Shown in pieces: positions 28,332 to 53,694 of a stretch of DNA of 64,000 nt; within the stretch, counting starts at the first letter, position 1; every line of letters starts with the position of its first letter. A program made the translations under genes and the position numbers. Origin of the DNA: Gammaproteobacteria bacterium (GTDB lineage Bacteria > Pseudomonadota > Gammaproteobacteria > Eutrophobiales > Eutrophobiaceae); contig CAXMWX010000009.1 of the NCBI GenBank assembly GCA_963422205.2, positions 224,001 through 288,000 on the forward strand. The letters run 5' to 3'. The notes under the pieces are model-generated. The model saw only the letters and a program-made list of their open reading frames with translations, made no database searches and had not been told where the DNA came from.

Positions 28332-29015
28332 TTAAAAGGGCTTGGCTGAACCCAGGAAGGCAACTGCTGCAATGCCAATCCAGTAGACGTAAGCCATATT
28401 GCGCCCGAACCGTATTGACTTGTCCAGGGTCAACTCGATGCTTGCGGTCTCACTCTCGGTGGCAAGCCGCCGGAACAGCACAGTCCACTCCCGCATAATA
28501 AAACGCAGTTTCAAACCGATGATGAGTAACAATGAATAAATCAATATCTTGCTGGAAAACCACATCGCGCCCTCTCCGGCCCGGAATGGCCCATAGCCCA
28601 TCAGGGAGCTGATGCTGGCCAGAAGCAACAAGGGAATAACCACAAAGCGAATGGCCTCATCAAACTTCGTCAGGCGGATACCGGTATCGGTTTCACGCTT
28701 AAAGAAGGCCATCCATGTCAAGCTCAGCCAGGCGGCAAAGGCCAGCCACATGATGACCAACCAGGCACCACCGTAAGGGTGCATGCCCCATAGAAATCCC
28801 ATGTGCAGACCCAACGGCAATAGTAAAACAATGCCTGTGCGGGCAAGAATATCGATACGATAAGCCGTTTCCATGTGCCGTCGGCGCTCATCCATGGATA
28901 ATTTGGGGTTGATGACATGATAGGACGTTTGAAAAACACCCCATTCACCACCCAGCCAGTAGACCATCGCCAGAATATGCAGCCAGCGTAAAACAGCGAG
29001 TTCAGTAATACCCAT
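28332..29015 (-). CDS. Uncharacterised integral membrane protein (paralog of 49446..50114)
   Basis: About 6 hydrophobic segments, with LHILAMVYWLGGEWGVF and LPLGLH. Confidence 0.75.
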   Translation of the reverse strand: MGITELAVLRWLHILAMVYWLGGEWGVFQTSYHVINPKLSMDERRRHMETAYRIDILARTGIVLLLPLGLHMGFLWGMHPYGGAWLVIMWLAFAAWLSLTWMAFFKRETDTGIRLTKFDEAIRFVVIPLLLLASISSLMGYGPFRAGEGAMWFSSKILIYSLLLIIGLKLRFIMREWTVLFRRLATESETASIELTLDKSIRFGRNMAYVYWIGIAAVAFLGSAKPF

Positions 29016-29055
29016 AAATGCCCACTCTCAGCAGCAAACGGTTTTGTTAGGTTAG

Positions 29056-29074
29056 TATAATATTATAACATTAT
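29056..29074. promoter_or_regulatory. AT-rich operator candidate (shared motif, site 1)
   Basis: Reverse complement ATAATGTTATAATATTATA. Similar sites at 31672 and 42676. Confidence 0.5.
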
Positions 29075-29314
29075 AAATAATTCAACCTCACTCTTCCGAT
29101 GAGGGGCTTGATAAAGATGATCAGCCCTTGTCCTGCCATAGAAGCGTGAACAGTCACCCCTGATAGAATCATCGCCGCTATCCATGGATGGAGTTGCCCC
29201 AGGTTATGTCTATTGAATTGGTTATTTAAAGCGGCGCGCAAGTGATGTAAACTGCCTGCACCGACTGACAGTTTCTTGTCGTGACCTATGCACAGCGCCG
29301 ACTACTCCTGACGG

Positions 29315-30145
29315 ATGTCATTATTTACCCTGTATCCAGCCATGCGTGATAGACCACAAAAACTCCTAAGGGCTTACAGTAAAAACGTGCTGGACCCGAA
29401 TTCACCGACGCCGCTGTATCATCAACTGTATTCCATGCTGAGAGGCTGCATCGTCGGTGGCATATTGGCCGATGGAGATAAAATGCCATCGGAAAAGGAA
29501 TTGGCGACTGTCTTTAAGGTCTCTCGCATCACGGCCCGGCGCGCATTACACGATCTTGCCACAGATAATTTCATTGCAAGGCACCGGGGGCGCGGCAGCT
29601 TTGTCCATTATAAGTATCAGCCAGAAACGGTGACTGCACCACTGACAGGGATGCTGGAGAGACTGGAACACATGGGGCGTGAAACCAAAATAAAGGTGAT
29701 TTCTCTTCGGTTCAGCAAACCACCGGCCAGCATGAATGAAGAATTTGAGCTGGAAGATGAACACCTGAATTTATGTCATATTACCCGAATCCGCAGTCAT
29801 AACAGCATGCCTTTTGCGTTTTATGAAAGCTGGTCTCTTGGCCTGGACAAGTCAGTCATTAATAAGCAAATGCTTGAGCAGCATCCCAGACTGGAACTGC
29901 TGCGAAAAGCCGGGATAAAAATTGCCAACATTGAGCAGACCTTGAGTGCTGAAGCGGCTTCGCCCGGTGTGGCGGATGCCCTGGGACTTATGCCTGGAAA
30001 GCCTTTGTTGAAACTCATCCGCCGGGCATTTGACCGAAAAGGAAAACAAATCGATCACCTTAACGGCGTCTATGATCCTGATCGCTTTCAATATCAAATG
30101 ACCATGTCACTGGAGACGAACACAGGCAAGCGGGCTAAAACATAA
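29315..30145 (+). CDS. GntR family regulator, HutC/UTRA subfamily
   Basis: PLYHQL, MPSEKELA..FKVSRITARRAL..L, RGRGSFV, and a C-terminal UTRA-like domain. Confidence 0.9.
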   Translation: MSLFTLYPAMRDRPQKLLRAYSKNVLDPNSPTPLYHQLYSMLRGCIVGGILADGDKMPSEKELATVFKVSRITARRALHDLATDNFIARHRGRGSFVHYKYQPETVTAPLTGMLERLEHMGRETKIKVISLRFSKPPASMNEEFELEDEHLNLCHITRIRSHNSMPFAFYESWSLGLDKSVINKQMLEQHPRLELLRKAGIKIANIEQTLSAEAASPGVADALGLMPGKPLLKLIRRAFDRKGKQIDHLNGVYDPDRFQYQMTMSLETNTGKRAKT

Positions 30146-30171: not shown

Positions 30172-31644
30172 CTAATAAGGACGGTGCAGATACTGTCCTT
30201 TGGCCTCGCCAACAACCGCCCCGTTGTCATAAACAAGCTGCCCGCGCAGGTAGGTCTGCTTTACCCTGGCACTTAACTCTATCCCCTCAAATGGCGTATA
30301 GCCCTGTTGTGATTCGGACTCCGCTGCCCTTATCACCCAGCTTTCTTTGGGATCAACCAGCACCAGATCAGCATCCAGCCCAACCTCAATATCGCCCTTG
30401 CTGTTTAAGCCATAACGTCTGGCCGGATTGTAACTGAGCAACTCGGCGATATGGTTATAACTCATGCCGCGTTTTGTACCTTCGCTGATCAAGGCCGGCA
30501 GCAGGTACTCGGTGCCACCGAAGCCGGACTTGGCAAGAAATATATTCTCAGGATTTTCCTGATTGATTTTCATTTCCTGTTTGCAGCACGCATGATCACT
30601 CACCACCCAGTCCAGTTGCTTCTCCAGTAATCTCTCCCAGAGATACTCCACATCCTCACGAGGACGGATGGGCGGGTTGACCTTGGCATGATTGGCACAG
30701 GATGATTCTGTATCAAGCACCAAATGACCGATAGTCACTTCCCGCTTGAAATTAATATGCGGGAATACCTCCGCCATCTGCAATGCCGCTACCACGGCTT
30801 TGCGCGAAGTCAAATGCAGCAGATTGATGTTTGCACAATCAGTCTCGTTCGCAAGATAAGAAGCAATGAAGATCGCCAGACCCTCTGAATGGGGTGGCCT
30901 GGATGCGCTGTAGGCTGGCAGGCCGGTCAGCTTGTTCTCTGATTCTACGATCTTTGTATAAGCACGCATGATCTCGGCGGTTTCACAATGCAGGCTTAAG
31001 CTAATCTGTGCTGCCTTATCGGGAAAGCGATCCATCGCCTTGCGAATTCCTCGCATGATGAATTCAAAATGAGCAAAATCATATTTCTCATCTTTTCCTA
31101 TCATCAGGAAATCACTTTGATCATCCGATTTCCCATGCAGCCCATGCGAGCCATAGAACATGAAAATCTTGAACGAAGTAACGCCGTGCTCATTGATAAG
31201 GGCCTCTATCTCATCAATATGCTGGCCATTCATGGGCGCCAGATGATACGCATAATCGACATGAAAACGCCCTTCCGAGATACGCAAAACCTCAGGATAA
31301 AATTCCGCATAAGGCCCGCCTTTATTCAGATAATACTGGCCGGTACGCATGTAATTTAAGCTGCTGGTGACCCCGCCCATCGCCGCCGCCCGGCTTTCTG
31401 TAATCGCATCCTCGCTCAAATGAGAATAGATACCGGTATGCATGTGGGCATCGATGGCACCGGGAAAGGCAAGATACGCCTGCCCATCCACCGTGCGCCT
31501 TGCCTGCCCGGCCGGGATGTTGCGGGTGATTTTGGCAAACTTCCCATCCTTGATCGCAATGTCACATTCATCTACACAGGACTGGTTCGGCCGCACCACC
31601 TGCACCTGCTTGATTAACAGATCGTAATTTTCAGACACATGCAA
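30172..31644 (-). CDS. Cyclic amidohydrolase (dihydroorotase/allantoinase/imidase family)
   Basis: Complete binuclear metal ligand set: DAHMH, SFKIFMFY, LHCE, LLHL, KVNPPIR, SDHA. Confidence 0.88.
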   Translation of the reverse strand: MHVSENYDLLIKQVQVVRPNQSCVDECDIAIKDGKFAKITRNIPAGQARRTVDGQAYLAFPGAIDAHMHTGIYSHLSEDAITESRAAAMGGVTSSLNYMRTGQYYLNKGGPYAEFYPEVLRISEGRFHVDYAYHLAPMNGQHIDEIEALINEHGVTSFKIFMFYGSHGLHGKSDDQSDFLMIGKDEKYDFAHFEFIMRGIRKAMDRFPDKAAQISLSLHCETAEIMRAYTKIVESENKLTGLPAYSASRPPHSEGLAIFIASYLANETDCANINLLHLTSRKAVVAALQMAEVFPHINFKREVTIGHLVLDTESSCANHAKVNPPIRPREDVEYLWERLLEKQLDWVVSDHACCKQEMKINQENPENIFLAKSGFGGTEYLLPALISEGTKRGMSYNHIAELLSYNPARRYGLNSKGDIEVGLDADLVLVDPKESWVIRAAESESQQGYTPFEGIELSARVKQTYLRGQLVYDNGAVVGEAKGQYLHRPY

Positions 31645-31671
31645 CTCCTAAAAAGAGAATATTAAAAAGTC

Positions 31672-31690
31672 ATAATGTTATATTTATATA
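31672..31690. promoter_or_regulatory. AT-rich operator candidate (site 2) in a divergent promoter
   Basis: ATAATGTTATATTTATATA between the amidohydrolase and the leuC-like gene. Confidence 0.5.
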
Positions 31691-31798
31691 TTATTCTGAC
31701 ATAGCTTCAAGTAGAATGACAGGCAATTAAACCAGGCCGGGCCAGAACAGCTATCGTGCTGAAAAACAGCAAGTTTATCCTCATTTACAGGCGTGTAC

Positions 31799-33196
31799 AT
31801 GTCAGCCAGTTTATTTGACAAAATCTGGGATGCACACCTTATCCGCCAATTCGATGATGGTTCCAGCCTGTTATACCTTGACCGGGTGTTCTTCCACGAA
31901 CGCACGGGTAGCATCGCTCTCGCCAGCATCCACGAGGATGGGCATCAAGTCGCCAATCCAGCGCACGTATTCGCCACCATGGATCATATCCTCGATACCT
32001 TTCCCGGCAGAGATGATCACACGCAGATCCCCAATGGTCAGCAATTTATCCTGACAACCCGCAAGCAGGCACATCTTGCCGGCGTGACCCTGTTTGATAT
32101 TAACGATCCCCGCCAGGGCATCTCCCACGTGGTCTCGCCCGAACAGGGCATTGCGCTGCCAGGCTGCACACTGGTCTGTCCCGACAGCCATACCTGTACC
32201 CTGGGGGGGCTGGGCACATTGGCCTGGGGCATCGGCTCCAGCGACTGTGAACACGCCTTGGCGACCGAGACCTTGAGGGTAAAAAAACCCCGTCAGATGC
32301 GCGTTGTTTTTGATGGCACACCCGCTGCCGGGGTCAGTGCCAAGGACATGATCCTGCATCTTATCAGTCGCTACGGTACCTCAGGCGGCAGCGGTTACAT
32401 GATCGAGTTTACCGGATCAGCGATTGCCGCCCTGCCGGTAGAGGCACGCCTTACCTTATGCAATATGGCGGTCGAATTTTCTGCCTTCTCTGGCATCATC
32501 GCACCCGATGATGCAACGATCAGCTACTTGAAAGACAAGCTCTACAGCCCAAAAGAGGCGCGCTGGGAAGAGGCCATGGCTTATTGGAAAACGCTGTACA
32601 CCGAGCCAGCGGCCAGATTCGACAAAGAAATCACCATCAATTGCCGCAAGATACATCCAACCGTCACCTGGGGTACCAGTCCGCAACACGCCATCACGCT
32701 GCATGAGCGCATTCCCGACCCGGCACACTGCACGGAGGCCGAAGGCCGGGCGATAAAAAGAGCGCTGGATTACATGGGCCTTAAAGCCGGTGCAAGCATT
32801 CGCGGAACCCCCATTGATGCTGCCTTTATCGGCTCTTGCACCAACAGCCGCTTGAGCGACCTGCGGGTGGCCGCCAGCATACTCAAGGGGCGCAAGGTAG
32901 CCGCCGGCGTAAAGGCGATTTGCGTTCCAGGCTCTTCACAAGTCAAGCAACTGGCCGAAGCAGAGGGTTTGGACAGCATCTTCCTGGATGCTGGTTTTGA
33001 GTGGCGTGAGTCCGGGTGTTCCATGTGTTTTTATGCCGGTGGTGAGAGTTTCGGCGAAGGCCAGCGGGTCATCACCAGCACCAACCGAAACTTTGAAAAT
33101 CGCCAGGGAAAAGGGACTCGCTCTCACCTGGCCAGCCCGGCAATCGTCGCCGCTTCTGCACTCAGTGGTTATATCACGGACATCGCTGAACCTTAG
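31799..33196 (+). CDS. leuC: LeuC-like [4Fe-4S] hydratase large subunit (isopropylmalate/dimethylmaleate hydratase family)
   Basis: LFDKIWDAH, CPDSHT, IGSCTNSR, GCSMC, STNRNFENRQG. No leuA or leuB nearby. Confidence 0.8.
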   Translation: MSASLFDKIWDAHLIRQFDDGSSLLYLDRVFFHERTGSIALASIHEDGHQVANPAHVFATMDHILDTFPGRDDHTQIPNGQQFILTTRKQAHLAGVTLFDINDPRQGISHVVSPEQGIALPGCTLVCPDSHTCTLGGLGTLAWGIGSSDCEHALATETLRVKKPRQMRVVFDGTPAAGVSAKDMILHLISRYGTSGGSGYMIEFTGSAIAALPVEARLTLCNMAVEFSAFSGIIAPDDATISYLKDKLYSPKEARWEEAMAYWKTLYTEPAARFDKEITINCRKIHPTVTWGTSPQHAITLHERIPDPAHCTEAEGRAIKRALDYMGLKAGASIRGTPIDAAFIGSCTNSRLSDLRVAASILKGRKVAAGVKAICVPGSSQVKQLAEAEGLDSIFLDAGFEWRESGCSMCFYAGGESFGEGQRVITSTNRNFENRQGKGTRSHLASPAIVAASALSGYITDIAEP

Positions 33197-33205
33197 ACGG
33201 TCATC

Positions 33206-33832
33206 ATGAAGCCCTTTCGCCAATACAGCGGCATTGCCGCCCCGCTGATGCGTGATAATGTCGATACCGATGCCATCATCCCATCGCGAGAGATGAAGCA
33301 GGTCGCCAAAACCGGGCTGGCTGATGGCATGTTTGCCGATTGGCGTTATCTGTATAAGGGGACGAGGCGATGCGGCCCCAATCCGGCATTCATCCTCAAC
33401 CAGCCGGGCTTTGAAGACAGCAGCATCCTGCTGGCAGGAAATAATTTTGGTTGTGGCTCTTCCAGGGAACATGCCGTCTGGGCCCTGGCCGAATATGGTA
33501 TGCGTGCCATTATCGCCCCGGGTTTCGGCAGTATCTTTTTCAATAACTGCATTCATAACGGTATCCTGCCCATCGTGCTGGAACGCGCTGTGGTTGACAG
33601 GCTGGCAGAGCAGGTGAGGTCCGCACCAACAAAAAACCGCATCCAGATTGACTTGGAGACTCAACAGGTGCTTACGCCCGATGGGACGTGCCATGACTTC
33701 ACGATCGCCCCGCTTGCCAGGGCCATGCTGCTACAAGGCATCAGTGCGATTGATATGACACTGCAACACAGGGAGGCGATCGCACAGTTCAAGGCGGCAG
33801 ATAGCAAGAGACGCTCCTGGGCCTATTTATGA
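33206..33832 (+). CDS. leuD: LeuD-like small subunit
   Basis: NVDTDAIIP, NFGCGSSREHAVWAL, FGSIFFNN. Confidence 0.8.
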   Translation: MKPFRQYSGIAAPLMRDNVDTDAIIPSREMKQVAKTGLADGMFADWRYLYKGTRRCGPNPAFILNQPGFEDSSILLAGNNFGCGSSREHAVWALAEYGMRAIIAPGFGSIFFNNCIHNGILPIVLERAVVDRLAEQVRSAPTKNRIQIDLETQQVLTPDGTCHDFTIAPLARAMLLQGISAIDMTLQHREAIAQFKAADSKRRSWAYL

Positions 33833-34136: not shown

Positions 34137-35207
34137 CTACTCCAGCCCATCCACAGGTTTGGCTATTGTCATAATACTCTCTCCAGTGCGAACTGGGGGG
34201 CCTGCCAAGCCGTAAAGCGCATAGCCATCAATGGGGGATACAACAGTCTCCAAAACCGCCCCCGTATAACCATGAATGAGGCCCAGCATTTCACCTTGCC
34301 TAAGATAGCGGCCTGCTGCTGCAACCGGAGTCCAAATACCAGAATGCCTGACCTTGACTGACTGGGTACCATCAAAATAGCGTGGTTTTATTTTGCGCTG
34401 CTCATCGTGTGATTGCATCATCTCCATCCTGGATAACACGCGTTTGAATCCTTGCACTATCAATTCAATATGCTTTGGATCCCGTTTGCCATTTTCGCCG
34501 ATTTCTACCAGTAGCGATGGCAACCCCTGGGCCACCGCTTGTCGATTCAGGGATCGACCCCGGTCGATTTGCTCCTGCGTGTTCATTTTATACCTGACAA
34601 TGTTTCGAAACCCAAAGGATTCTGCCAGTGACAGTGCCAGAGGATAATTCGCTGCCAGTGGACCACCATAAACGCCAATAAAGGCTTCAAGCCACTCTGC
34701 CCCATCACCGCTGTGAACATCAAAAACAACGTCTGCCCTGGGAATGATTTGATTCGACAGTGTATAGGCGATGCGTTCAGTCTGGGACCCATCGGCCTTG
34801 CCTGGAAATGAGCGATTGAGATTCTTGCGGTCATAGGGATTAACATAGGGCGAGCGGGCTTCAAACGCAGACACATGCGCCACTCGCACGATAATAAATG
34901 TGCCGCCAAGTGTTTTCGGATCAATCTCTTCAGCCAGTCTTTTTGCGGCAAGGATAGAGGCAAATTCAAAACCATGCACCCCGGCAACCATCAATATAAC
35001 AGGCCCTGGGCGACTGCCCTGTAATACAGTAAGCGGGATGAATGTTTCCGGATCGCTCTCGCCAGCGGCCACGCCAATGCTCAGATCATGTCGTGTTCCA
35101 CTTTTGATTTGAATTCCACCGATACTAAACTCTGCCTGGGCGTTCAGGCAAACGTGCAGAAGAAGCAGAAACAGCAGAGCAGGTTTATTGCTATTGAATC
35201 CAGGCAT
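34137..35207 (-). CDS. Secreted M14-family Zn hydrolase (AstE/AspA-like)
   Basis: Signal peptide ending AQA, then AGVHGFE, NLNRSFPG, DVHSG, LVEIG. Confidence 0.85.
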   Translation of the reverse strand: MPGFNSNKPALLFLLLLHVCLNAQAEFSIGGIQIKSGTRHDLSIGVAAGESDPETFIPLTVLQGSRPGPVILMVAGVHGFEFASILAAKRLAEEIDPKTLGGTFIIVRVAHVSAFEARSPYVNPYDRKNLNRSFPGKADGSQTERIAYTLSNQIIPRADVVFDVHSGDGAEWLEAFIGVYGGPLAANYPLALSLAESFGFRNIVRYKMNTQEQIDRGRSLNRQAVAQGLPSLLVEIGENGKRDPKHIELIVQGFKRVLSRMEMMQSHDEQRKIKPRYFDGTQSVKVRHSGIWTPVAAAGRYLRQGEMLGLIHGYTGAVLETVVSPIDGYALYGLAGPPVRTGESIMTIAKPVDGLE

Positions 35208-35227
35208 TGGCTTTTCTTCTCTACCGG

Positions 35228-36484
35228 CTATTGCCCAGGTTCGAACTTCGGCAAGTTTTTAAGTAAGGATTTATCGAAGGGCGCATTGCGAAAAAATTTG
35301 GGGTAGTAATAAGCACGCAGCGCGGCATGATATGTACGAACGCCTGCTTCGTATCTTATGCTCGAATGCAAGTCAGTATTTGCCAGAGATTGCAGCGATC
35401 TTTCCAGAAGCGATGGGGGCGCCAATAGTGAAAGCAAGGCCGCAATGCGAGCACGTTGTAACCTGCCATCTCGATAAGCGGTAGATAAATGCTCGGCCTG
35501 CTGGTCGCCAACGTGCTGAAAAGCGTAATACCATGGCCATTCGAACGCACTTTTTACGGGTTCATAATCAGACCACTCAGGATGACGGCTGAAAAAGGCA
35601 TCCATTGTCGCCTGTCTCGGCAAATCCCAGGCATCGTTCACGGTCTCTCGCTGCAACATCAAAATGTCAGCACCGGAGGGCACCGGCACTAATTTATCTA
35701 TCGCAAGTCGCCCCGCCGCTGGCAATATGACAGCAGCCGATATCCAAATAGTGATGAGTGTCATCAAAATCACAGCACCCGGCTTACGCCATGCCGAAAT
35801 AGAAAAACAGAGCAGGGTCCAGAGGGCGGTATAAGCAAAAATCCACAGACTGGCCAGGGCCAGTTTACTGGCTGTTGTACCTGCGATAATCCCGGCAATG
35901 ATTAATGGTGCAATGAGACACAAAAATAACCCGCCCGCCCGCAGGCATGCACGCAGCAGCCAGAAACAGAATGGCTGCCCGGTCGCTGCCTCCAATAAAT
36001 CATGACGCCCTGCGCCAAGCTCGCTGGTTCTAAGATCATACAGCAGCATGATTAACACAAGTGGAATGATAAAAGCGGCAAAAAACGCAAAATCAAAACG
36101 ACCAATTTGTGCCATGCTGGGATTACCTGCATCGCGTTCATAGATTTGGCCTTCCAGGGCGAGCATTCTAATGCGGTGTTTCCAGGGCTGTGCATCCCGC
36201 TGTCCCATAGCGGCATAAGCGAAATCTGAAGGCGGGTCATAAGTTAAGTGAAAACTATAGTAGGCTGCGCTGCCCCAGTCCTCGAATTTTTCAAATCCGC
36301 CCGACCGGTCTTGCTGGTCTGCATGGATAAGATTCTGGATTGTCGTATTCTGGCGTTCCACTTCTATCAGTCCGAAGCCGACTGACATAGAGGACAAGCC
36401 AAGCACAACAGCCATCCAAAACCCTACGGTGCGATCCCGTGCCGTGAATTTTGCTTCGCGTATCAGCGCATTGAAGGCGCTCAT
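35228..36484 (-). CDS. ABC-2-type permease (DUF3526-like)
   Basis: TM segments plus WGSAAYY, LALEGQIYE, GRFDFAF. ATGA overlap with the upstream permease. Confidence 0.8.
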   Translation of the reverse strand: MSAFNALIREAKFTARDRTVGFWMAVVLGLSSMSVGFGLIEVERQNTTIQNLIHADQQDRSGGFEKFEDWGSAAYYSFHLTYDPPSDFAYAAMGQRDAQPWKHRIRMLALEGQIYERDAGNPSMAQIGRFDFAFFAAFIIPLVLIMLLYDLRTSELGAGRHDLLEAATGQPFCFWLLRACLRAGGLFLCLIAPLIIAGIIAGTTASKLALASLWIFAYTALWTLLCFSISAWRKPGAVILMTLITIWISAAVILPAAGRLAIDKLVPVPSGADILMLQRETVNDAWDLPRQATMDAFFSRHPEWSDYEPVKSAFEWPWYYAFQHVGDQQAEHLSTAYRDGRLQRARIAALLSLLAPPSLLERSLQSLANTDLHSSIRYEAGVRTYHAALRAYYYPKFFRNAPFDKSLLKNLPKFEPGQ

Positions 36485-37917: not shown

Positions 37918-37922
37918 GGGTT

Positions 37923-38657: not shown

Positions 38658-38661
38658 TATA

Positions 38662-42675: not shown

Positions 42676-42694
42676 TATATTATTATATCATTAT
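42676..42694. promoter_or_regulatory. AT-rich operator candidate (site 3) in a divergent promoter
   Basis: Reverse complement ATAATGATATAATAATATA. Confidence 0.45.
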
Positions 42695-42752
42695 GGTTTG
42701 CATTGATGCGAATTTAACTCCTTGAAACAACAGACGTGCTTTTGCCGACATA

Positions 42753-44974: not shown

Positions 44975-45084
44975 GAGAGATATTAAGAGCAATAAATGAA
45001 GACAGCTTACGTTAAAAGCCGCTACTTAAAAACCCGTTGATATAAAAGCCGCGCTGAATCCTTACGGCTGCTTCAACTTCAACC

Positions 45085-45978: not shown

Positions 45979-46179
45979 GTTGACTGGTTTTTCTATCGGG
46001 TAAGCGCCGTATGATATAGCCAAAAAATCTGCAGAGAAAATGAATTCTCTGGCAGACTCACACAATATTTTCTTACGATTTGTGAGGCGTCGGTAACGAG
46101 ACCGCCGCAAACTAAAAATGCAATTTTGATTTCAGTAGTACATACTGCACCATCGGTGACTGACATATAAGAGAAAAAA

Positions 46180-47049
46180 ATGAACGCAGGCAAACCACTC
46201 AAGGCCATTGATGCGGTTGTCAATATCTGGACTGAGGAAGCACTTGCCCAGCGCCCCGGCTGGGGGGATGAATTTTTCGTTGGCAAAATGAAGGCCAAAG
46301 GCGGACTCATGGCTGGCCTCACCCTGGAGCAGATGATCGAGCGCATGGAATCTGCCAACATCGAACATGCCTTTTTGATTGCAGCGAAATCAGGCCGACC
46401 CGGCCTGCCCGGCTGTTATCACATGCCCGCTCAAGTGATCGCCAATGCGGTAGCACAACACCCGGATAAATTTTCCGGCCTGATTGGAATCGATCCCTTC
46501 ATGGGGATGGAGGGTGTAAGGCAGCTTGAGGCAGCCGTAGGGGATCTGGGGTTTATCGGCGCACACGTGTATCCTCACTGGTTTGAGCTGGCGCCGGATC
46601 ACGCCAGGTACTATCCCTTCTATGCAAAATGTTGTGAGCTGGATATCCCAATCCAGATGCAGGTGGGGCAATCCATGATCTACGCAAGGGATTTTCCCTG
46701 CCGCAGCGTTGGTCGGCCCATCAGCCTGGACGCCGTTGCCTGTGACTTTCCCGAGTTAAAACTCATTGGCATTCATGTGGGGATCCCCTGGGCCGAGGAG
46801 ATGATTGCCATGGCCTGGAAACATGAACAGGTTTACATTGGTGCCGATGCCCATAGCCCAAAATACTGGCCGGAGAGTTTCGTCAAATACATCAACAGCT
46901 ACGGCCAGGACAAGGTGATCTTCGGCACCGATTTCCCCGTGCTGGATTTCAAGCGTACCATGGATGAGATTATGTCGCTTAACCTTAAATCCGAGGTGTT
47001 GCCAAAATTCTTACGAGAAAATGTGCGCCGCATCTATAACCTGAAATAG
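46180..47049 (+). CDS. Amidohydrolase-2 family protein
   Basis: YYPFYAKCCELDIP, DFPELKLIGIHVGIPW, KVIFGTDFP. Confidence 0.88.
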   Translation: MNAGKPLKAIDAVVNIWTEEALAQRPGWGDEFFVGKMKAKGGLMAGLTLEQMIERMESANIEHAFLIAAKSGRPGLPGCYHMPAQVIANAVAQHPDKFSGLIGIDPFMGMEGVRQLEAAVGDLGFIGAHVYPHWFELAPDHARYYPFYAKCCELDIPIQMQVGQSMIYARDFPCRSVGRPISLDAVACDFPELKLIGIHVGIPWAEEMIAMAWKHEQVYIGADAHSPKYWPESFVKYINSYGQDKVIFGTDFPVLDFKRTMDEIMSLNLKSEVLPKFLRENVRRIYNLK

Positions 47050-47057
47050 TTTTTTTT

Positions 47058-48518
47058 ATGAATCTGTGCTCCATACTTGCCTGCCATGCCGTTGGCCGGG
47101 CTGACAAAACCGCGATTGAGTTTAACCAGCAGCGTATTTCCTACGCTGATCTGTGGCAACAGGTAGAAGCCTGTGCAGGTTATCTGTACACACAGGGCGT
47201 GCGGGCAGGCGATCGAATCGGGCTGGCCTTAAAGGAACACCCGGCCCACTTAATACTGCACTATGCCCTGCCTCGCCTTGGTGCTGTCATCCTGCCCATC
47301 GATCACCGCTGGACTGCCAGTGAAAAACAGGCCGCCGCAAAGGCATTCGATGCCAGGCTGCTCATCACAGAAGCCGATGCAGAGCCCCTGGATGCCGTGA
47401 AAACAATCATATTGCATGATGACTGGCGAGACACACAGCCCCGTGAACTGCCCGACATGCCCGACATGCCGGATAAATGCAATATGCCCTTGCTGATTTC
47501 ACTATCATCGGGAACCACCGGCCGACCCAAAGGTGCATTGGTCACTCACGAGCAAATGTATGCCCGTTTTATCAGCCAGTGGGTCACCATGGGTTTTCAT
47601 GCCGGCGATCGATTCCTCGCAGTCACGCCTTTGTTTTTCGGTGCGGGGCGCTCTTTTGGCATGTGTTTTCTGGCGGCGGGAGCGACGGTTATTCTTGATC
47701 CTCCACCCCATAAACCGGAACAGCTGGCAGCGGCTATCAACAACAGCCAGGCATCGGTTACGTTCCTGGTCCCCACCCTGCTGCTGCGCCTGCTGCCTCT
47801 GGCCGATAAACATACCCCCCTACTGCCGGGACTTCAGTGTCTACTGGTCAGTGGTGCCATCCTCTATCCAGCAGAAGCTAAGGAAATCCGGCAGCGGATA
47901 AGCCCGAATCTTACCGGCTATTATGCATCGAGTGAAGGTGGCGGCATTGCCGTACTCAGCGCCGATGAGTTCAGTGACTACGCCGATACCGTCGGCCGCC
48001 CTGCATTCAGAACGGAAGTGCAGATTGTTGATGGCGATGGCAATCACGTTAAAGCAGGTGACACCGGCCGCTTGCGCTACCGCGGCCCGGCCATCGCCAG
48101 GCAGTTTCTTGACAGCGATGGTCATGAACAGGCAGCTGAAGTGGGAGGCTGGTTTTATCCAGGCGATCTTGCCTCGCTGACCTCAACTGGCCATATCATG
48201 CTGCGTGGCCGAGATAAAGATGTGATTAATCGCGGTGGCGTTAATATTTATCCTGCGGAAATTGAAGCGGTACTTATGAGATATGATGCGGTTTCAGAGG
48301 TGGCTGTAGTAGGCAGAAAATCCGCCGAGTTGGGAGAGGATGTGATTGCCTATGTGGCTTCAGCCGATCCTGCCATCGGCGATCTGCTAAAAGCCTATTG
48401 CCGCACCCATCTTGCACCTTACAAGGTACCAAGCCAGTTTATATTACTTGATCAGTTGCCCAAAAAGGCATCAGGAAAGATCAACAAGCAGGCGCTTTTA
48501 GAGCAGTCACGGCCTTAA
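47058..48518 (+). CDS. Class I adenylate-forming enzyme (acyl-CoA ligase)
   Basis: LSSGTTGRPKG, YASSEGG, PGDLA, GRDKDVINRGGVNIYPAEIE, LPKKASGK. Confidence 0.88.
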   Translation: MNLCSILACHAVGRADKTAIEFNQQRISYADLWQQVEACAGYLYTQGVRAGDRIGLALKEHPAHLILHYALPRLGAVILPIDHRWTASEKQAAAKAFDARLLITEADAEPLDAVKTIILHDDWRDTQPRELPDMPDMPDKCNMPLLISLSSGTTGRPKGALVTHEQMYARFISQWVTMGFHAGDRFLAVTPLFFGAGRSFGMCFLAAGATVILDPPPHKPEQLAAAINNSQASVTFLVPTLLLRLLPLADKHTPLLPGLQCLLVSGAILYPAEAKEIRQRISPNLTGYYASSEGGGIAVLSADEFSDYADTVGRPAFRTEVQIVDGDGNHVKAGDTGRLRYRGPAIARQFLDSDGHEQAAEVGGWFYPGDLASLTSTGHIMLRGRDKDVINRGGVNIYPAEIEAVLMRYDAVSEVAVVGRKSAELGEDVIAYVASADPAIGDLLKAYCRTHLAPYKVPSQFILLDQLPKKASGKINKQALLEQSRP

Positions 48519-48626
48519 CAAGCCGATTTTTCTGACCAGCCCATAAGGCTCAACCGGTGTTCTCAGCACCGACCTGTCTGATTGCATTCGAACATGGCAA
48601 AGCCGTTACTGGCCTGGCAGAACATG

Positions 48627-49347
48627 CTAGAAGCCGGCGATGACCGTCACGCCACACAGCAGGATAAGCCCGCCCGCCAGGGCATGTGAATACTGATACA
48701 GACAGGGCGCCTTGATCCTGTGCGCCCCATAAAAACATACGCAGACGGCGGCTGCCATCGTGATTAAGGTGGCGAGCACAAACACCGATGTGACAAACGC
48801 CAGGGCGATGTAATTCTGCTGCCCTGCCGGATACATAAGCACTGGAATCAGCGCTTCGCAAGGACCGAAAATAAAAATAATAAACAACCACCAGATGCTC
48901 ACAGGGGCCTTGTCCTCTTTGAGGTGCACGTGAGCATGTGCATGATGATGCCTGTGCGGATGGCTGATGCACTGTACCATCGGCATGGGCATGGACGTGG
49001 GTATGGGCCCGGTTTTTATAGGCGATACGCAGGCCATAGACAAAATATGCCATACCGAAAGCCAGCAGCAGGTATGAGGCGATATCGCCATGCCGGGCCT
49101 CGATCGTCTCCATTAACGCAAGGGCATGACCCAGGGCAATGCCTGTCGTGCCCAGCAACACAGAACCCACCGTGTGTCCGAGTCCGCATACCATGGTCAC
49201 CGCCAGGGTGCGTCGCAGCGTCCAGCCTCTCGCCCTGGCCAGGGCAACAAAGGGAATATAGTGATCAGGGCCAATCAGGGTATGCAGCACACCGATACCC
49301 AGCGCGGTGATGGCCAGCACCTGGATTTCAGGGGTCAACCAGTACAT
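48627..49347 (-). pseudogene. His-rich Ni/Co permease (UreH/NiCoT-like), 1-nt frameshift near 48966
   Basis: The first frame has LHTLIGPDHYIPF, GLGHTVGS and HTHVHAHADG. The second frame continues HPHRHHHAHAHVH...IFGPCEALIP. Confidence 0.75.
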
Positions 49348-49445
49348 GGATAAAACAAACGCGATCCGAAGGCGATTTGAAAGTTATCATGTTAGTATAT
49401 CATCTGTCTTTTTGAGCACGTCTTGATACCTGTCCGGCCATATCC

Positions 49446-50114
49446 ATGATCGATATTCTGCTGCTGAAATTCTTCCACCTGCTGTGTTTTGTCTACTGGC
49501 TGGGTGCTGATTTGGGCGTGTTCTATTCCAGCAACTATCTGATCAAAAAAGATATTTCCGTGGAGTCCCGGCGAATTGCCGCCAGGATCATGTCCTGGCT
49601 TGATCAGGTTCCCCGTATCAGCATGGCCCTGATGCTGCCCACGGGAATCCACTTATCTGCCGCCATGGGCTACATCACGCTATCTACCACCGGCCGCATT
49701 CTGCTCTGGCTGATCTGCCTGGCCTGGCTGGCAAACATTATCATCTTATATGTACTTAACAAGCAATCGCTTAAGCACCGCATGGAGGCCATCGACTTCT
49801 GCTTCCGTATATTTTTGGTACTCGGTCTGGGGGGGATTTCGATTTATGCTTTGCTGACAGATCGATTGATCCCGCCAGACTGGCTGGCCGTCAAGCTGCT
49901 GATATTTGCCTTGCTGGTGGCCTGTGGCCTGGCCATTCGAATCTTTATACGGCCTTTTACTGTTGCATTTGCGAACATGGTCAGGGAAGGCCGGACCGAT
50001 GCGGGTGATGTTATCATGGCCAACAGCATAAGACGCTGCCGTTATGTGGTCATCGGGCTATGGCTTGGTCTGCTTGTGAATGCGGCCATCGGGATACATC
50101 TGATTAATGTTTAA
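49446..50114 (+). CDS. Uncharacterised integral membrane protein (paralog of 28332..29015)
   Basis: FHLLCFVYWLGADLGVF, LPTGIH and about 6 TM segments. Confidence 0.75.
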   Translation: MIDILLLKFFHLLCFVYWLGADLGVFYSSNYLIKKDISVESRRIAARIMSWLDQVPRISMALMLPTGIHLSAAMGYITLSTTGRILLWLICLAWLANIIILYVLNKQSLKHRMEAIDFCFRIFLVLGLGGISIYALLTDRLIPPDWLAVKLLIFALLVACGLAIRIFIRPFTVAFANMVREGRTDAGDVIMANSIRRCRYVVIGLWLGLLVNAAIGIHLINV

Positions 50115-50147: not shown

Positions 50148-50861
50148 ATGAAACATCAGACCATACGCGGGAGAATACGCTATACCAGCAAGAAGCCGGA
50201 ACGCATGGACGAGGAGCGCGGAAGAGAGTCTTTTATTATTACAAAACATGCCGATGGCAAGCGCACATTGCGCGCACATTGTGAAATTGATGACGCCCCT
50301 TGTGTGCTGCGAGATGTTACCCTCAGCCTGGATCAGGACTGGTACCCGCTGGATTGCTTTGTGCGCCTGACCATTGATGATCAATTCGAAGGCAGTGGCT
50401 GGATGTATTTCAATGAAAATTACGCAGAATGTGAAATGTTCAACGCACGGGATGGGCGCATTTCACAGCGTATTGATCTGCAAGCGCGAGTGCGCTGGCT
50501 GGGGGCGCATCCGATTGTCGCTGATGCCATGTGTTTTGCCGTCTTTGATCGCAGCCAGGGGCCGGGCAAGGTCTTTTATCCGAATATGGCGCTGACATCC
50601 CCTGATCATCGTGGTGCCACCGGGCCGCTGCTGTTTAAGATGGGTTTTGGTCTTCGCTATCTTGGCGAAGAGCAGGTCTCGGTGCCTGCGGGGACTTTTG
50701 ATGCGTATCATTTTCAGTATGTGGATACCGCCGGTGAAATGCCCGAAGAACACCCCCCTTACGATGTCTGGTGTGGTGCTGATGATGATTTTTTGTTTAT
50801 AAAAGGTCAGGTCGCCGGGTATATGCAAACCTATTACGAACTCATTGAACTTGAAAGATAG
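50148..50861 (+). CDS. Uncharacterised beta-rich soluble protein
   Basis: Clean ORF with RBS in the operon. Contains LGAHPI.ADA, SPDHRGATGP, VSVPAGTFDAYHF. Confidence 0.7.
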   Translation: MKHQTIRGRIRYTSKKPERMDEERGRESFIITKHADGKRTLRAHCEIDDAPCVLRDVTLSLDQDWYPLDCFVRLTIDDQFEGSGWMYFNENYAECEMFNARDGRISQRIDLQARVRWLGAHPIVADAMCFAVFDRSQGPGKVFYPNMALTSPDHRGATGPLLFKMGFGLRYLGEEQVSVPAGTFDAYHFQYVDTAGEMPEEHPPYDVWCGADDDFLFIKGQVAGYMQTYYELIELER

Positions 50862-50884: not shown

Positions 50885-51181
50885 ATGTCAGCCCTGATGC
50901 TTATTCAATGCCGGATCACCAACGTGGAAAAATTTATGGCATACGGCAAGGCAACACCTGCTGTTGTCGAGCAATATGGTGGCCGCTATATCGCCATGCG
51001 CGGGGCAACTGAGTTGCTTGAAGGTGATTGGGATGAGCAGACCAAGGTCGTCATATCTGAATGGCCATCCATGGAAGCTGCCCGCACCTTCTGGCATTCC
51101 AGCGAGTATAGGGAAGCAAAAAAACTGCGTGAAGGGGCGGCTGAAGTCCAGGTGTTGTTGGTAGAGAAGACGGCCGAGTAA
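50885..51181 (+). CDS. DUF1330 domain protein
   Basis: YGGRYIAMRG...LEGDW...VISEWPSMEAARTFWHSSEYREAKKLR, with AAGGAG RBS. Confidence 0.85.
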   Translation: MSALMLIQCRITNVEKFMAYGKATPAVVEQYGGRYIAMRGATELLEGDWDEQTKVVISEWPSMEAARTFWHSSEYREAKKLREGAAEVQVLLVEKTAE

Positions 51182-51217
51182 TACCATCAGATTTTATCGA
51201 TTTGAGAGACTGCCAAT

Positions 51218-52258
51218 ATGCCGGATAATTACCTTGCACTCGCCCTGCAAACCCGTTGCGATGCCATCAATTCGCTTGATAATACCAGCGCACGCCAGGC
51301 GATGCTGGCCACGATTAACAGAATCCATCAGCAGATAGCGGCTTGCAGGGCATTCATCGGTACGGATGCTCAATTATTTGTGCTGCCAGAGTATTTTTTA
51401 ACGGGTTTTCCCATGGGCGATACCATCGAAGGCTGGGCGGAGAAGGCCGGCATCTCAGCCGCTGGCCCTGAATACGATGCCCTGGGCAAAGTCAGCCAGG
51501 ACAATGCGGTTTTTCTGGCCGGTAATGCGTATGAACTGGACAGCCATTTCCCCGGCTTGTATTTCCAAACCAGCTTTATCATCGATCCTTCGGGCAATGT
51601 CATCTTGCGTTACCGGCGCCTTATCTCCATGTTTGCACCCACACCCCACGATGTCTGGGATCAATACCTCGACATCTATGGCATTGACAGCGTGTTCCCG
51701 GTAGCCGATACAGCAATCGGGAAACTGGCAGCCTGTGCCTCGGAAGAAATCCTCTATCCTGAAATTACCCGTGCCCATGCCTTGCGCGGTGCCGAAGTGA
51801 TTCTGCATTCCACCAGCGAAATCGGCAGCACTGAACTGACCCCCAAAGACATAGCGAAACGCGCCCGCGCCATTGAAAACCTGGTCTATGTGGTCTCGGC
51901 AAACAGCGCAGGCATAGCTGGCACGGCCATACCCTCAGCCTCTACCGATGGTATGTCAAAGGTGCTGGACTACAAAGGGCGTATACTGGCGAGTGCGGGT
52001 TTCGGCGAGACCATGGTGGCCAACGCAGAAATCGACCTGAATGCCTTGAGAGGTTATCGCCGTCGTCCCGGCATGGCGAATATGTTAGCACGGCAACGGC
52101 TGGAACTCTTCAGCCAAAGTTACAGTGGGCATTCAATCTATCCGGCTAATTCTCTGCTGGATGAGACGGGAGCAAAACATATTATTCCACAGCGGGGGCA
52201 TTTTGTTGACACCCAGCGCAAGGTCATTGAAACATTGCACAAAAAGCACGTGATCTAG
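51218..52258 (+). CDS. Nitrilase-superfamily C-N hydrolase with a non-canonical triad
   Basis: LFVLPEY, YRRL, CASEEILYPE, RARAIEN..YVVSAN. Confidence 0.85.
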   Translation: MPDNYLALALQTRCDAINSLDNTSARQAMLATINRIHQQIAACRAFIGTDAQLFVLPEYFLTGFPMGDTIEGWAEKAGISAAGPEYDALGKVSQDNAVFLAGNAYELDSHFPGLYFQTSFIIDPSGNVILRYRRLISMFAPTPHDVWDQYLDIYGIDSVFPVADTAIGKLAACASEEILYPEITRAHALRGAEVILHSTSEIGSTELTPKDIAKRARAIENLVYVVSANSAGIAGTAIPSASTDGMSKVLDYKGRILASAGFGETMVANAEIDLNALRGYRRRPGMANMLARQRLELFSQSYSGHSIYPANSLLDETGAKHIIPQRGHFVDTQRKVIETLHKKHVI

Positions 52259-52260
52259 AG

Positions 52261-53694
52261 ATGGGCGATAAAAAAATTCATGTCCGAAACCCGCGTACCG
52301 GGCTAAGTGATTACACATTCATCCAGCCAGATGCCAGGCAGGTAGCACAAAAAATCGCACAGATCAGAGACGCACAGACACAGTGGCTGAGGCTGGGAGT
52401 AGCAGGCCGTTGCACCGCATTGCAAGCACTGAAATGTGCTATCGAAAAACATCAGCAGGCCCTGATAGATGCCTTGACCCTGGATACCGGCAGGTGCCAG
52501 GAATCCGACTTGGAGACCCACCTGGTCATGGGCATTATCAAGCGCTGGTGTCAACAGGCCCCGGCCCTGCTGGCGGAAGGGGAAGCACATGAAACCAGTA
52601 TTCCTTTTATCAAGGTAGGCAGGCAATATGTCCCTTATGCCGTTGTCGGTGCTATCACACCGTGGAATTTCCCCCTGACCCTGTCTTGCATTGATGCCAT
52701 GCCAGCCCTGTTGGTAGGCTGTGCGGTTGTCGTCAAGCCCAGTGAGATCACGCCACGCTTTGCTGTACCTTTGCAAACGTGCATAGATGAGGTTGATGTG
52801 CTGAAAGATGTGTTTCACTTTGTCCCAGGGGATGGCGAGGTGGGTGCTGCCTTGATTGATGAGGTCGATACCATCTGCTTCACCGGCAGTGTTGCAACTG
52901 GCCGGAAGGTGGCTGAAGCCGCCGCCAGAAACTTCATCCCGGCACAACTGGAACTGGGCGGTAAGGATCCGGCCATTATCACTGCCAGTGCTGATCTGGA
53001 TCGTGCGGCGGCGGCTATCAGTTGGGGAGGGCTGACCAATGCAGGGCAGGCCTGTCTTTCTATTGAACGGGTATACGTGGAGAGTCCTGTACACGATGAA
53101 TTCGTACAATTACTTACTGAAAAAGTCGCCAGACTTCGCTGTAACATTAAAGAGATTAACGAAGGCGAAATCGGCCCGATCATCTCCGCCGCCCAGATCG
53201 ATCTTATTCAATCACATCTGGACGATGCGCTGGACAATGGTGCTGTAGCTGCTTGTGGCGGCAAAATTGAACAGCATAACGGCGGCAGCTGGTGCCAGCC
53301 CACCGTATTAACCGATGTCAAGTCAGCAATGAAAGTCATACAGGAAGAGACCTTTGGCCCCATACTGCCGATCATGGGATTTGCTACCGAAGAAGAGGCG
53401 ATAGCACTCGCCAATGATACCCGATACGGTTTATCTGCTGCGGTATTCTCCAACGATAAAGCACAGGCCGATAGGATTGCAAAGGCCATACAGGCCGGTG
53501 CCATCAGTATTAATGATGCGGCTTTAACCGCCATAATGTACGAAGGCGAAAAACAGGCTTTTAAATTATCCGGGCTGGGAGGCTCTCGCATGGGCACAGA
53601 ATCGATCCGCAGATTCCAGCGCACCAAGTCCCTGATTAATAATGTAGAGCAAGCCTGGGATCCATGGTGGTTTGAGAAAAAGCCGACAAATTAG
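52261..53694 (+). CDS. Aldehyde dehydrogenase
   Basis: ITPWNFP, KPSE, FTGS, LELGGKDP, NAGQAC, EETFGP. Confidence 0.92.
   Translation: MGDKKIHVRNPRTGLSDYTFIQPDARQVAQKIAQIRDAQTQWLRLGVAGRCTALQALKCAIEKHQQALIDALTLDTGRCQESDLETHLVMGIIKRWCQQAPALLAEGEAHETSIPFIKVGRQYVPYAVVGAITPWNFPLTLSCIDAMPALLVGCAVVVKPSEITPRFAVPLQTCIDEVDVLKDVFHFVPGDGEVGAALIDEVDTICFTGSVATGRKVAEAAARNFIPAQLELGGKDPAIITASADLDRAAAAISWGGLTNAGQACLSIERVYVESPVHDEFVQLLTEKVARLRCNIKEINEGEIGPIISAAQIDLIQSHLDDALDNGAVAACGGKIEQHNGGSWCQPTVLTDVKSAMKVIQEETFGPILPIMGFATEEEAIALANDTRYGLSAAVFSNDKAQADRIAKAIQAGAISINDAALTAIMYEGEKQAFKLSGLGGSRMGTESIRRFQRTKSLINNVEQAWDPWWFEKKPTN

Follow-up and report, generated by a model that had tools for sequence, protein, structure and literature searches.

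Positions 28,332 to 53,694 of the DNA analysed here, a 64,000-nucleotide stretch of contig CAXMWX010000009.1 from a gammaproteobacterium of the family Eutrophobiaceae (the window), hold the genes g01 to g23 (Table 1). On balance we favour the view that these genes constitute a regulon, controlled by a GntR/UTRA-type regulator, for the uptake and catabolism of a nitrogen heterocycle that would be degraded via an alkylmaleate. The substrate is likely to be a small, probably carboxylated ring, that is a cyclic imide, a lactam or a ureide. Both the functional unit and the general logic of the pathway appear well supported by comparative genomics. A literature search conducted mainly at the level of abstracts found no published account of this cluster.

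An initial annotation, made from the sequence alone, had described a single catabolic cluster of about 25 kb, and a listing of open reading frames (ORFs) together with Pfam and NCBIfam scans located every gene of its inventory where it had been placed. Two features were missing from it, a 7-kb block of TonB-dependent and ATP-binding cassette (ABC) transport genes (g06-g11) and a frameshifted gene for a histidine-rich membrane protein (g18). The idea of one cluster stands in part. The genes form a shared unit in other genomes, where they co-occur around homologues of g20, whereas the 7-kb block is absent from all 80 related loci. These loci are the best from a scan of one genome per species in which at least 541 of 586 candidate g20 stretches were confirmed; neighbours were counted by tblastn at a query coverage of at least 50% and within 10 kb of g20, and the counts are floors because only 47 of the 80 loci reach 18 kb. 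The commonest neighbour was g15 (45 loci), followed by the CaiB-type CoA-transferase (42), membrane proteins of the g01 type (40) and the g19 type (36) and the nitrilase-like protein (33). Then came the relative of 3-hydroxy-3-methylglutaryl (HMG)-CoA lyase, hereafter HMGL (25), the aldehyde dehydrogenase (ALDH; 23), DUF1330 (21), LeuD (20), LeuC (19), the CoA ligase (19), Amidohydro_2 (17), the GntR regulator g02 (17) and g18 (3). The cyclic amidohydrolase g03 was present in two loci, with a truncated third at the edge of locus L008, and the ABC ATPase gave two weak matches; the AstE-like deacylase, both permeases, the TonB receptor, g11 and the major facilitator superfamily (MFS) transporter each gave none.

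The arrangement in L008, a metagenome-assembled genome with a g20 that is 78% identical, keeps the order of the window without the 7-kb block (g03-LeuCD-CaiB-HMGL-g15-Amh2-AMP-g18-Mem-g20-DUF1330-Nit-ALDH). LeuD lies there directly beside CaiB, which makes the block an insertion in this lineage. Judged by such comparisons, the region minus the block is a genuine gene unit of patchy distribution. Of 30 relatives, three have g20, in one case as a pseudogene split over three frames, and in a class-wide sample it was found in 5 of 400 genomes, the window's own genome counted. In a relative of the same family (L091-L093, G007:C1:1783622-1784130) the gene is present as three out-of-frame fragments, an observation consistent with decay of the trait. 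The G+C content at 28000-56000 is 0.48-0.56, compared with 0.55-0.61 for the greater part of the sequence upstream (over 2-16 kb and 20-24 kb), and the lower value fits a horizontally acquired island.

What accompanies g20 in other genomes is informative about the kind of chemistry involved. Among the 47 loci of at least 18 kb, 45 contain at least one C-N hydrolase family, 35 at least one hydratase, CoA-transferase or lyase family, and 34 both; in the window's own genome such genes occur at 15 and 13 places in 2.99 Mb, or roughly 10% and 9% per 20 kb. Further families of these sister clusters were obtained by de novo ORF clustering of the 80 loci and were annotated where present in at least three of them. 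An isochorismatase-like hydrolase, for which N-carbamoylsarcosine amidohydrolase is the nearest relative of solved structure (100 bits), recurs in 30 loci, a polysaccharide-deacetylase/PuuE-like protein, usually in two copies and closest to PuuE allantoinase, in 26, and hydantoinases A and B in 12 and 8; the latter pair is caprolactamase-like (543 bits), of the ATP-dependent lactamase type. An amidase-signature enzyme (7 loci), a DUF4437/ChrR cupin (20) and a double alpha/beta-hydrolase (18) are also present. Directly after g20 there is a methyltransferase in 16 loci and a 122-aa protein in 19. Other recurrent families are tripartite ATP-independent periplasmic (TRAP) transporters, CMD, DUF1838, an FAD oxidase, a HapK-like protein, enoyl-CoA hydratase (ECH), acyl-CoA dehydrogenase (ACAD) and MmgE/PrpD.

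The cleavage enzymes also vary between sister clusters. In six of the 80 loci there is a methylisocitrate-lyase-like enzyme (296-306 bits), and in L032, L033, L036 and L046 its gene adjoins an archaeal-type LeuC and a LeuD/DmdB-type small subunit (176 bits against a cut-off of 109). About five loci instead contain a RipC/Ccl-like, that is citramalyl-CoA-lyase-like, enzyme with a MaoC hydratase, an ACAD and two CaiB genes. The exchange of CoA-transferase and HMGL for a methylisocitrate-lyase-like enzyme beside a LeuD/DmdB-type subunit fits the hydration of an alkylmaleate followed by cleavage of the resulting alkylmalate.

The genome of the window has a second module of related content, without g20 and without the operator described below, on contig C13 (C13:108000-127999, at about 5692-19999). 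It comprises leuD, leuC, a TonB-dependent receptor (857 aa), a GntR/FCD regulator, an isochorismatase-like gene, hydantoinases B and A, an HMGL-like gene split in two frames, CaiB, two SnoaL-like genes and a gene of the Asp/Glu/hydantoin-racemase family. Its CaiB, HMGL, hydantoinase A/B and isochorismatase-like set is the one that adjoins g20 in other genomes.

A motif shared by several promoters had been noted from the sequence alone, and this was borne out. With up to three mismatches TTATAACATTATAA has 14 matches in the window, against 2.30 +/- 1.62 expected, and none of 100 shuffles reached 14. Twelve of the matches lie in five intergenic regions (g01|GntR, g03|leuC, upstream of g11, CaiB|HMGL and g18|g19), three of which have paired sites 8 bp apart. 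The consensus is a palindrome, GTTATA-N-TATAAC, and a perfect copy with no mismatch (GTTATA-T-TATAAC) lies at 41329-41341 upstream of g11; the 7-kb block, despite being a lineage-specific insertion, thus has a putative operator copy upstream of it. Twenty related loci gave 36 matches and 10 pairs 8 bp apart, while 30 first-order Markov simulations gave on average 6.6 matches (maximum 14) and 0.03 pairs (maximum 1). The motif is found at the equivalent place between g03 and LeuC in L008 and L019, on the CaiB side in L011, L018, L019, L023 and L060, upstream of the membrane-protein gene in L013 and between LeuC and g15 in L056 and L084. In the second module on C13 there was one weak match, no more than chance. 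The putative regulator, g02, has an N-terminal GntR helix-turn-helix (HTH) domain and a C-terminal UTRA domain, both scoring above their cut-offs.

The best named family for g03 is the allantoinase family TIGR03178, at 236 bits against a cut-off of 357.85. It also falls below the equivalog cut-offs for dihydropyrimidinase (185; cut-off 393) and dihydroorotase (189; cut-off 452), and its best match in the PDB is allantoinase 3e74 (151 bits). Residues H67/H69, K159, H219, H277 and D350 are invariant in the alignment, so the HxH, Lys, His, His, Asp pattern is intact; following the family pattern we take them to be the ligands of a binuclear metal centre, the carbamylated lysine included. By these comparisons g03 belongs to the cyclic amidohydrolase superfamily, has kept its metal ligands and stands outside the named subfamilies.

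In metagenomes at least 367 relatives of g03 were confirmed, of which 80 (65-76% identical) were retained. LeuC-like genes of the archaeal type, with a median identity of 33% to g04, accompany it in 38 of these 80 independent loci, a DmdB-type small subunit in 37, a Liv-type importer ABC ATPase in 31, an isocitrate-lyase-family lyase in 27, a soluble fumarate-reductase-like flavoprotein in 21 and a GntR regulator in 9. The archaeal-type LeuC beside g03 passes the cut-off of the homoaconitate-hydratase family (402 against 386 bits). Genes of the g03 type thus go with an aconitase-family hydratase, whichever its type, and with one or the other of two cleavage systems that are unrelated, and this coupling is the strongest support for the order of ring opening, alkylmaleate, alkylmalate and cleavage. 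The compact operon seen in these loci (L094-L173), which is common in soil, freshwater and marine metagenomes and apparently uncharacterised, runs GntR, Liv-type ABC importer, archaeal-type LeuC, DmdB-type LeuD, isocitrate-lyase-family lyase, g03-type amidohydrolase and fumarate-reductase-like flavoprotein. In a variant of marine origin, g03 is combined with DUF4396, a TonB receptor and an FAD_binding_4 oxidase.

As first described, the LeuC-LeuD pair of the window (LeuC2D2) has no adjoining leuA or leuB in the Pfam and NCBIfam scans. Nor is it the sole leuCD of the genome, there being a higher-scoring pair at C13:113745-115760 (756 and 246 bits) and a leuB on C5. The window LeuC remains below the equivalog cut-off of TIGR00170 (548.4 against 560.25 bits, the C13 copy scoring 755.9) and passes the subfamily model PRK12466 (680 against 531); LeuD passes TIGR00171 (206.6 against 116.25). 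LeuC and LeuD are 47% and 43% identical to the C13 pair, and 58-67% and 50-59% identical to the g20-linked copies of other genomes. Cys349, Cys409 and Cys412 of LeuC2, presumably the ligands of a 4Fe-4S cluster as the family pattern indicates, are conserved in all 20 aligned LeuC sequences, the C13 copy included. LeuC2D2 is therefore a second copy, predicted to be an aconitase-family hydratase, with its Fe-S ligands kept.

Of the two genes that would act on the product of this hydratase, g12 has as its second-best solved relative the succinate-hydroxymethylglutarate CoA-transferase 9br6 (190 bits), and it reaches 235 bits with NF052585, the equivalog for succinate-glutarate or succinate-HMG CoA-transferase, whose cut-off of 750 it does not attain. 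Its neighbour g13 scores 295.1 bits with NF004283 (cut-off 246), a subfamily-level model that does not imply substrate identity, and 170-228 bits with the HMG-CoA lyases of the PDB. It is the only intact gene of this family in the genome, since the copy on C13 is split into two frames. Some 18 kb upstream of g13, at 18526-24605, is a liuRABCD cluster for leucine/isovalerate catabolism (a MerR-type regulator, isovaleryl-CoA dehydrogenase, carboxylase beta, enoyl-CoA hydratase and biotin carboxylase alpha) that lacks a gene for HMG-CoA lyase (liuE). It is followed by a DNA methylase-HNH gene (16958-18391).

Release of ammonia by a nitrilase was part of the pathway as first proposed, and this step is weakened. 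The protein in question, g22, matches the CN_hydrolase domain well above its cut-off (101 against 23.2 bits) and has Glu58 in place, and yet it lacks the catalytic Lys and Cys. Arg134 and Ser175 align with these residues of formamidase 5g3o and of Nit2 2w1v, and both are conserved in at least 95% of 27 orthologues. Its sequence suggests that g22 may not be an amidase of the usual kind; it could be either a natural Ser-variant or a non-catalytic member of the superfamily.

Three families without a name are among the most constant members of the unit. For g20 there are 2085 homologues, of which the best 120 listed are 61-80% identical and spread across distant bacterial lineages; since the homologues are 237 aa long, the start was set at 50148. 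The alignment has 85 invariant columns. A structure model (pLDDT 85.7) is an all-beta closed barrel, with DUF1849 (6ntr, Z 16.4) and DUF1089 (2h1t, Z 15.6) as its best structural matches. The Foldseek and VIA lists for the model contain only DUFs and LolA-, VioE- and porin-like barrels, with no enzyme and no CpcT among them, and the ESM Atlas returned only unnamed clusters for g20 and no usable match for g19. The membrane proteins g01 and g19 are paralogues (27% identity, E 2e-26). No Pfam match at E<=0.001 was obtained for g01, and in many of the 40 loci with a g01 match the homologue within 10 kb of g20 is 54-70% identical. At least 90% of 29 members of the g19 family share two His residues (H11 and H69) along with a number of Trp, Arg and Asp positions, a pattern that may point to a site for a cofactor or metal more than to a plain transporter. 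The third protein, g15, has no Pfam match; its AlphaFold model (pLDDT 93.5) resembles the two-domain glyoxalase I 6bnz (TM-score 0.65-0.70), a vicinal oxygen chelate (VOC) fold, and its alignment has no invariant His, the acidic and amide residues that are conserved being E91, Q128, E135, E223 and D225.

For g18, homologues align over residues 1-130 in one reading frame and over 139-242 in a second. The sequence at 48400-49500 is identical in contigs from two sequencing runs of one study, which may themselves be the source data. Intact homologues of about 240 aa with an HxH-rich loop occur in four loci: in L008 and L049 the gene is divergent from Mem-g20, and in L014 and L023 it stands just upstream. 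Pfam searches at E up to 5 gave only sub-threshold hints (CopD, SirB, VIT1, DUF3108) for the membrane proteins, g18-like proteins, f11 and g11. Among solved structures g16 comes closest to BB4693 (3irs), itself uncharacterised, and the g16-g17 pair precedes g20 in L008, L011, L012, L013, L015 and L016. The transporter g14 is of the D-galactonate type (TIGR00893, 293 bits; cut-off of 395 not reached), and at the same relative place L011, L012, L015 and L060 have a TRAP transporter, DctPQM; the presence of an anion-type MFS protein here and of DctPQM elsewhere was counted in favour of an anionic substrate. The 7-kb block encodes an AstE-like deacylase, two DUF3526 ABC-2 permeases, an ABC ATPase, a TonB-dependent receptor and a His-rich protein of 118 aa, and apart from the ATPase its genes are missing from the 80 g03 loci as they are from the 80 g20 loci.

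In the pathway that we propose, the substrate would be imported by the MFS anion transporter, to which in this genome the TonB/ABC block may contribute. An early step could fall to the trio of unnamed families, that is the membrane protein, the beta-barrel g20 and the VOC-fold protein g15, and the Amidohydro_2 protein, the CoA ligase, the ALDH, DUF1330 and the Ser-variant CN-hydrolase might serve as accessory enzymes. Hydrolytic ring opening by g03 would lead to an alkyl-substituted maleate, which LeuC2D2 would hydrate to a tertiary alkylmalate. CaiB would then transfer CoA to the alkylmalate, and retro-Claisen cleavage by the HMG-CoA-lyase-like g13 would yield a 2-oxo acid and an acyl-CoA. 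The initial annotation had arranged the genes in a similar order, from an alkyl-maleimide to cleavage. Its general logic is upheld by the linkage to hydratases and the exchange of lyases, and its nitrilase step and the tetrapyrrole origin of its substrate are not.

Several points weigh against this regulon and pathway. The pathway and the substrate class rest on sequence comparison, and the early steps are guesswork, since no function is known for g20, for the membrane protein or for g15. Because g22 lacks the catalytic Cys and Lys, the cluster in the window has no obvious half-amidase. Near g20, g03 was found only in the three loci already mentioned, and g20 is in none of the 80 g03 metagenome loci, from which it follows that the amidohydrolase-hydratase module is separable from the g20 module. 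Many of the CaiB, CoA-ligase and ALDH matches in the g20 loci are only about 30% identical and are possibly paralogues. Since g13 is the sole intact HMGL gene and the liu cluster lacks liuE, g13 may also, or instead, serve leucine catabolism. As to the operator, the window search gave no match between g15 and g16, and the controls were shuffles or Markov chains, neither of which mimics intergenic DNA that is rich in AT. In a weight-matrix scan of the whole genome, whose matrix was built from the same five sites, AT-rich sequence swamped the output; the scan was therefore not used as evidence, and the limits of the regulon are provisional.

Parts of the proposed route have counterparts in known systems. 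In the nicotinate fermentation of Eubacterium barkeri, dimethylmaleate hydratase (DmdAB) is followed by 2,3-dimethylmalate lyase (Dml). As there, a LeuCD-family Fe-S hydratase is proposed here to act on a dialkylmaleate ahead of C-C cleavage, and the sister clusters pair a DmdB-type subunit with an isocitrate-lyase-family lyase. Unlike that system, the window combines a LeuCD paralogue of the bacterial type with a CoA-transferase and an HMGL-like protein that stand in for the lyase; the carriers are aerobes, the upstream nicotinate genes are absent, and g20, the membrane protein and g15 are added. Chloroflexus has a succinyl-CoA:D-citramalate CoA-transferase and an R-citramalyl-CoA lyase of the HMGL family. 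In this pair, as with human SUGCT and HMG-CoA lyase, a family III CoA-transferase activates a tertiary hydroxy-dicarboxylate and the HMGL-family enzyme cleaves the CoA ester to acetyl-CoA and an oxo compound, and the same is envisaged for g12 and g13; the window genes, however, score only at the subfamily level and lie in the context of an N-heterocycle. Amidases of the cysteine-hydrolase type for carbamoyl or amic acids, akin to the isochorismatase-family amidohydrolases for maleamate and N-carbamoylsarcosine that serve in the catabolism of nicotinate, nicotine and creatinine (we take 3uao/4l07 to be maleamate amidase), adjoin g20 in the 30 loci noted above, although in the genome of the window such an enzyme is absent from the cluster and present only in the C13 module.

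Cyclic imides are metabolised in Blastobacter and Alcaligenes via an imidase, a half-amidase and a maleate hydratase. The opening of a cyclic imide followed by deamidation of the amic acid, as in that metabolism and in the fungal HxnM imidase-HxnN amidase pair (PMC9304392, available text), is what is suggested here. According to the same text, HxnM, the Pseudomonas putida enzyme and similar cyclic imidases are structurally related to the PgdA/PuuE deacetylase fold, and this polysaccharide-deacetylase/PuuE fold recurs beside g20. The available accounts of HxnM/HxnN and of Blastobacter describe no such gene cluster, and in contrast to both, the window has a dihydropyrimidinase-type amidohydrolase and, as proposed, an alkylmalate CoA ester downstream.

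It seems unlikely that the ring belongs to another class, either a cyclic ureide (a 5-substituted hydantoin or an analogue of dihydropyrimidine or dihydroorotate) or a hydroxypyridine or pyridone, which would be opened to a carbamoyl or amic acid and then converted to a branched C4-C6 dicarboxylate. The named enzymes closest to g03 are allantoinase, hydantoinase and dihydropyrimidinase, Liv-type ABC importers resembling those for amino acids or urea accompany it, and the C13 module includes the racemase-family gene. Enzymes of the N-carbamoylsarcosine amidohydrolase and hydantoinase A/B types, to which the isochorismatase-like and caprolactamase-like neighbours of g20 are related, together perform the degradation of N-methylhydantoin, and the polysaccharide-deacetylase neighbours are nearest to PuuE allantoinase. 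However, all of the matches to named enzymes are far below the equivalog cut-offs, the loci showed no genes for the breakdown of purines or pyrimidines, and we know of no ureide pathway that ends in an aconitase-family hydratase and an alkylmalate lyase.

Maleimides arise from the oxidation of tetrapyrroles, and it had first been suggested that monopyrrolic oxidation products of heme, bilins or chlorophyll (methylethylmaleimide, hematinic acid, formyl-pyrroles or pyrrolinone amides) are opened to dialkylmaleates and then cleaved. This reading we regard as quite unlikely, and a tetrapyrrole origin of the substrate is speculative. The general logic of the pathway is in its favour, as is the literature search, mainly of abstracts, which found no bacterial alkylmaleimide pathway. 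Ring-opened hematinic acid would be a methyl-substituted cis-homoaconitate, for which the match of the g03-linked archaeal-type LeuC to the homoaconitate-hydratase family is suggestive, and the CoA ligase, ACAD and ECH could handle a propionate side chain. TonB-dependent receptors, typical importers of large ligands, stand behind the operator here and recur in some g20 and g03 loci.

A check for co-occurrence with tetrapyrrole genes gave a positive result of limited extent. Five of the 80 g20 loci include a protein of the CpeT/CpcT family (PF06206, E 5.3e-35; phmmer to CpcT 4o4o, E 2.2e-4), directly beside g20 in L056, L062, L084 and L085 and several genes away in L059, and the family is rare, 4 of 401 class genomes giving a match and three of these a score above the cut-off. 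On the other side, the window's own genome has no CpcT-like gene, and of the four class genomes with a match only one has g20, on another contig, so that no linkage is seen in the class sample. The CpcT-bearing loci apparently come from related lineages, which implies few independent events. Neither a heme oxygenase nor a bilin reductase is among the annotated recurrent families (at least three loci), and there is no enzyme specific to pyrrole-derived substituents. The fold search with g20 did not return CpcT, and DUF1001 proteins also have roles unrelated to bilins, for example as a plant starch-grain protein, as far as the available part of the source goes; CpcT is not mentioned in the available part of PMC10151467. 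CpeT/CpcT-family genes (bilin-lyase-like, about 349 aa) are thus found in non-cyanobacterial Gammaproteobacteria. We would similarly give little credence to the broader form of the idea, a widespread modular pathway that mineralises the monopyrrole debris of tetrapyrrole oxidation via a dedicated LeuCD paralogue and a CoA-dependent or direct alkylmalate lyase and is founded on three uncharacterised enzyme families (the g20 barrel, the two-His membrane protein and the His-less VOC protein) and a Ser-variant nitrilase-fold protein.

Finally, it is very unlikely that separate pathways merely sit together here, with LeuC2D2, CaiB and HMGL breaking down some organic acid, either citraconate/citramalate or HMG (the LiuE step that the neighbouring liu cluster lacks), beside an unrelated g19-g23 operon: the lack of liuE with g13 as the only intact lyase gene, the resemblance of CaiB to succinate-hydroxymethylglutarate CoA-transferase, the separate occurrence of the g03 and g20 modules in most genomes and the mosaic nature of the region, which varies between genomes, would agree with this, but the same operator motif precedes g03/LeuCD, CaiB/HMGL and g19-g23 and recurs at equivalent places elsewhere, and CaiB/HMGL and LeuCD adjoin g20 in other orders with no liu genes in view.

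Table 1. Genes and putative operator sites of the region, with positions in the window
Feature	Position	Strand	Basis or remark
g01, membrane protein, about 5-6 transmembrane segments, family without a name	28332-29015	-	paralogue of g19
Putative operator, two overlapping sites 8 bp apart, g01|GntR	29055-29076	.	0-2 mismatches to TTATAACATTATAA
g02, GntR/HutC-type regulator with UTRA effector domain	29315-30145	+	Pfam GntR 2.2e-16, UTRA 1.1e-19
g03, cyclic amidohydrolase, allantoinase/hydantoinase-like	30172-31644	-	TIGR03178, 236 bits
Putative operator, two sites 8 bp apart, divergent g03|leuC2	31662-31683	.	motif search
g04/g05, LeuC2-LeuD2, predicted second-copy aconitase-family hydratase	31793-33832	+	TIGR00170, 548.4 bits; PRK12466, 680
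g06-g11, block	34137-41181	-	between LeuCD and CaiB
Putative operator, 146 bp upstream of g11	41327-41340	.	motif search
g12, family III (CaiB) CoA-transferase	41435-42637	-	Pfam CoA_transf_3, 8e-109
Putative operator, two sites 8 bp apart, divergent CaiB|HMGL-like	42675-42696	.	motif search
g13, HMG-CoA-lyase-family C-C lyase	42753-43682	+	NF004283, 295.1 bits
g14, anion-type MFS transporter	43727-44992	-	MFS_1, 1e-60
g15, two-domain VOC-fold protein	45085-45981	-	structure model; ORF readable up to 46110
g16, Amidohydro_2	46180-47049	+	Pfam
g17, adenylate-forming CoA ligase (AMP-binding)	47058-48518	+	Pfam
g18, His-rich membrane protein, frameshifted	48550-49347	-	homologue matches in two frames
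Putative operator, g18|g19-g23 operon	49384-49397	.	3 mismatches
g19, membrane protein	49446-50114	+	paralogue of g01
g20, 237-aa soluble closed beta-barrel	50148-50861	+	homologues and structure model
g21, DUF1330	50885-51181	+	Pfam, 5e-26
g22, CN_hydrolase-superfamily protein	51218-52258	+	Pfam, 7e-29
g23, aldehyde dehydrogenase	52261-53694	+	Aldedh, 1.3e-117; NF006916, 394 bits, cut-off of 521 not reached

Beyond g23, a short-chain dehydrogenase/reductase (SDR) at 54024-54788 was dropped as a member of the cluster, being only 27-33% identical to the SDRs of related loci. At 56535-60138 a 510-aa aldehyde dehydrogenase and a class-III aminotransferase, divergent from an HTH-cupin regulator, resemble a catabolic pair for omega-amino acids or beta-alanine and show no link to the cluster. 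Two adjoining genes of the Uma2 family (putatively restriction-endonuclease-like) are found at 8540-10173.

If the regulon and the alkylmaleate pathway favoured here are real, they would represent a catabolic route new to the literature searched and would for the first time place several uncharacterised but highly conserved proteins in a functional setting. Carriers of g20 include the culturable NOR5-3, Microbulbifer agarilyticus, Paraglaciecola chathamensis, Colwellia chukchiensis and Massilia hydrophila. The separate operon of g03, DmdAB-like hydratase, lyase and flavoprotein, frequent in metagenomes from soil and water, forms a module that is just as uncharacterised. The cluster offers candidate enzymes, and a candidate operator, for the bacterial fate of small cyclic imides and lactams, such as those that come from the oxidation of pigments.

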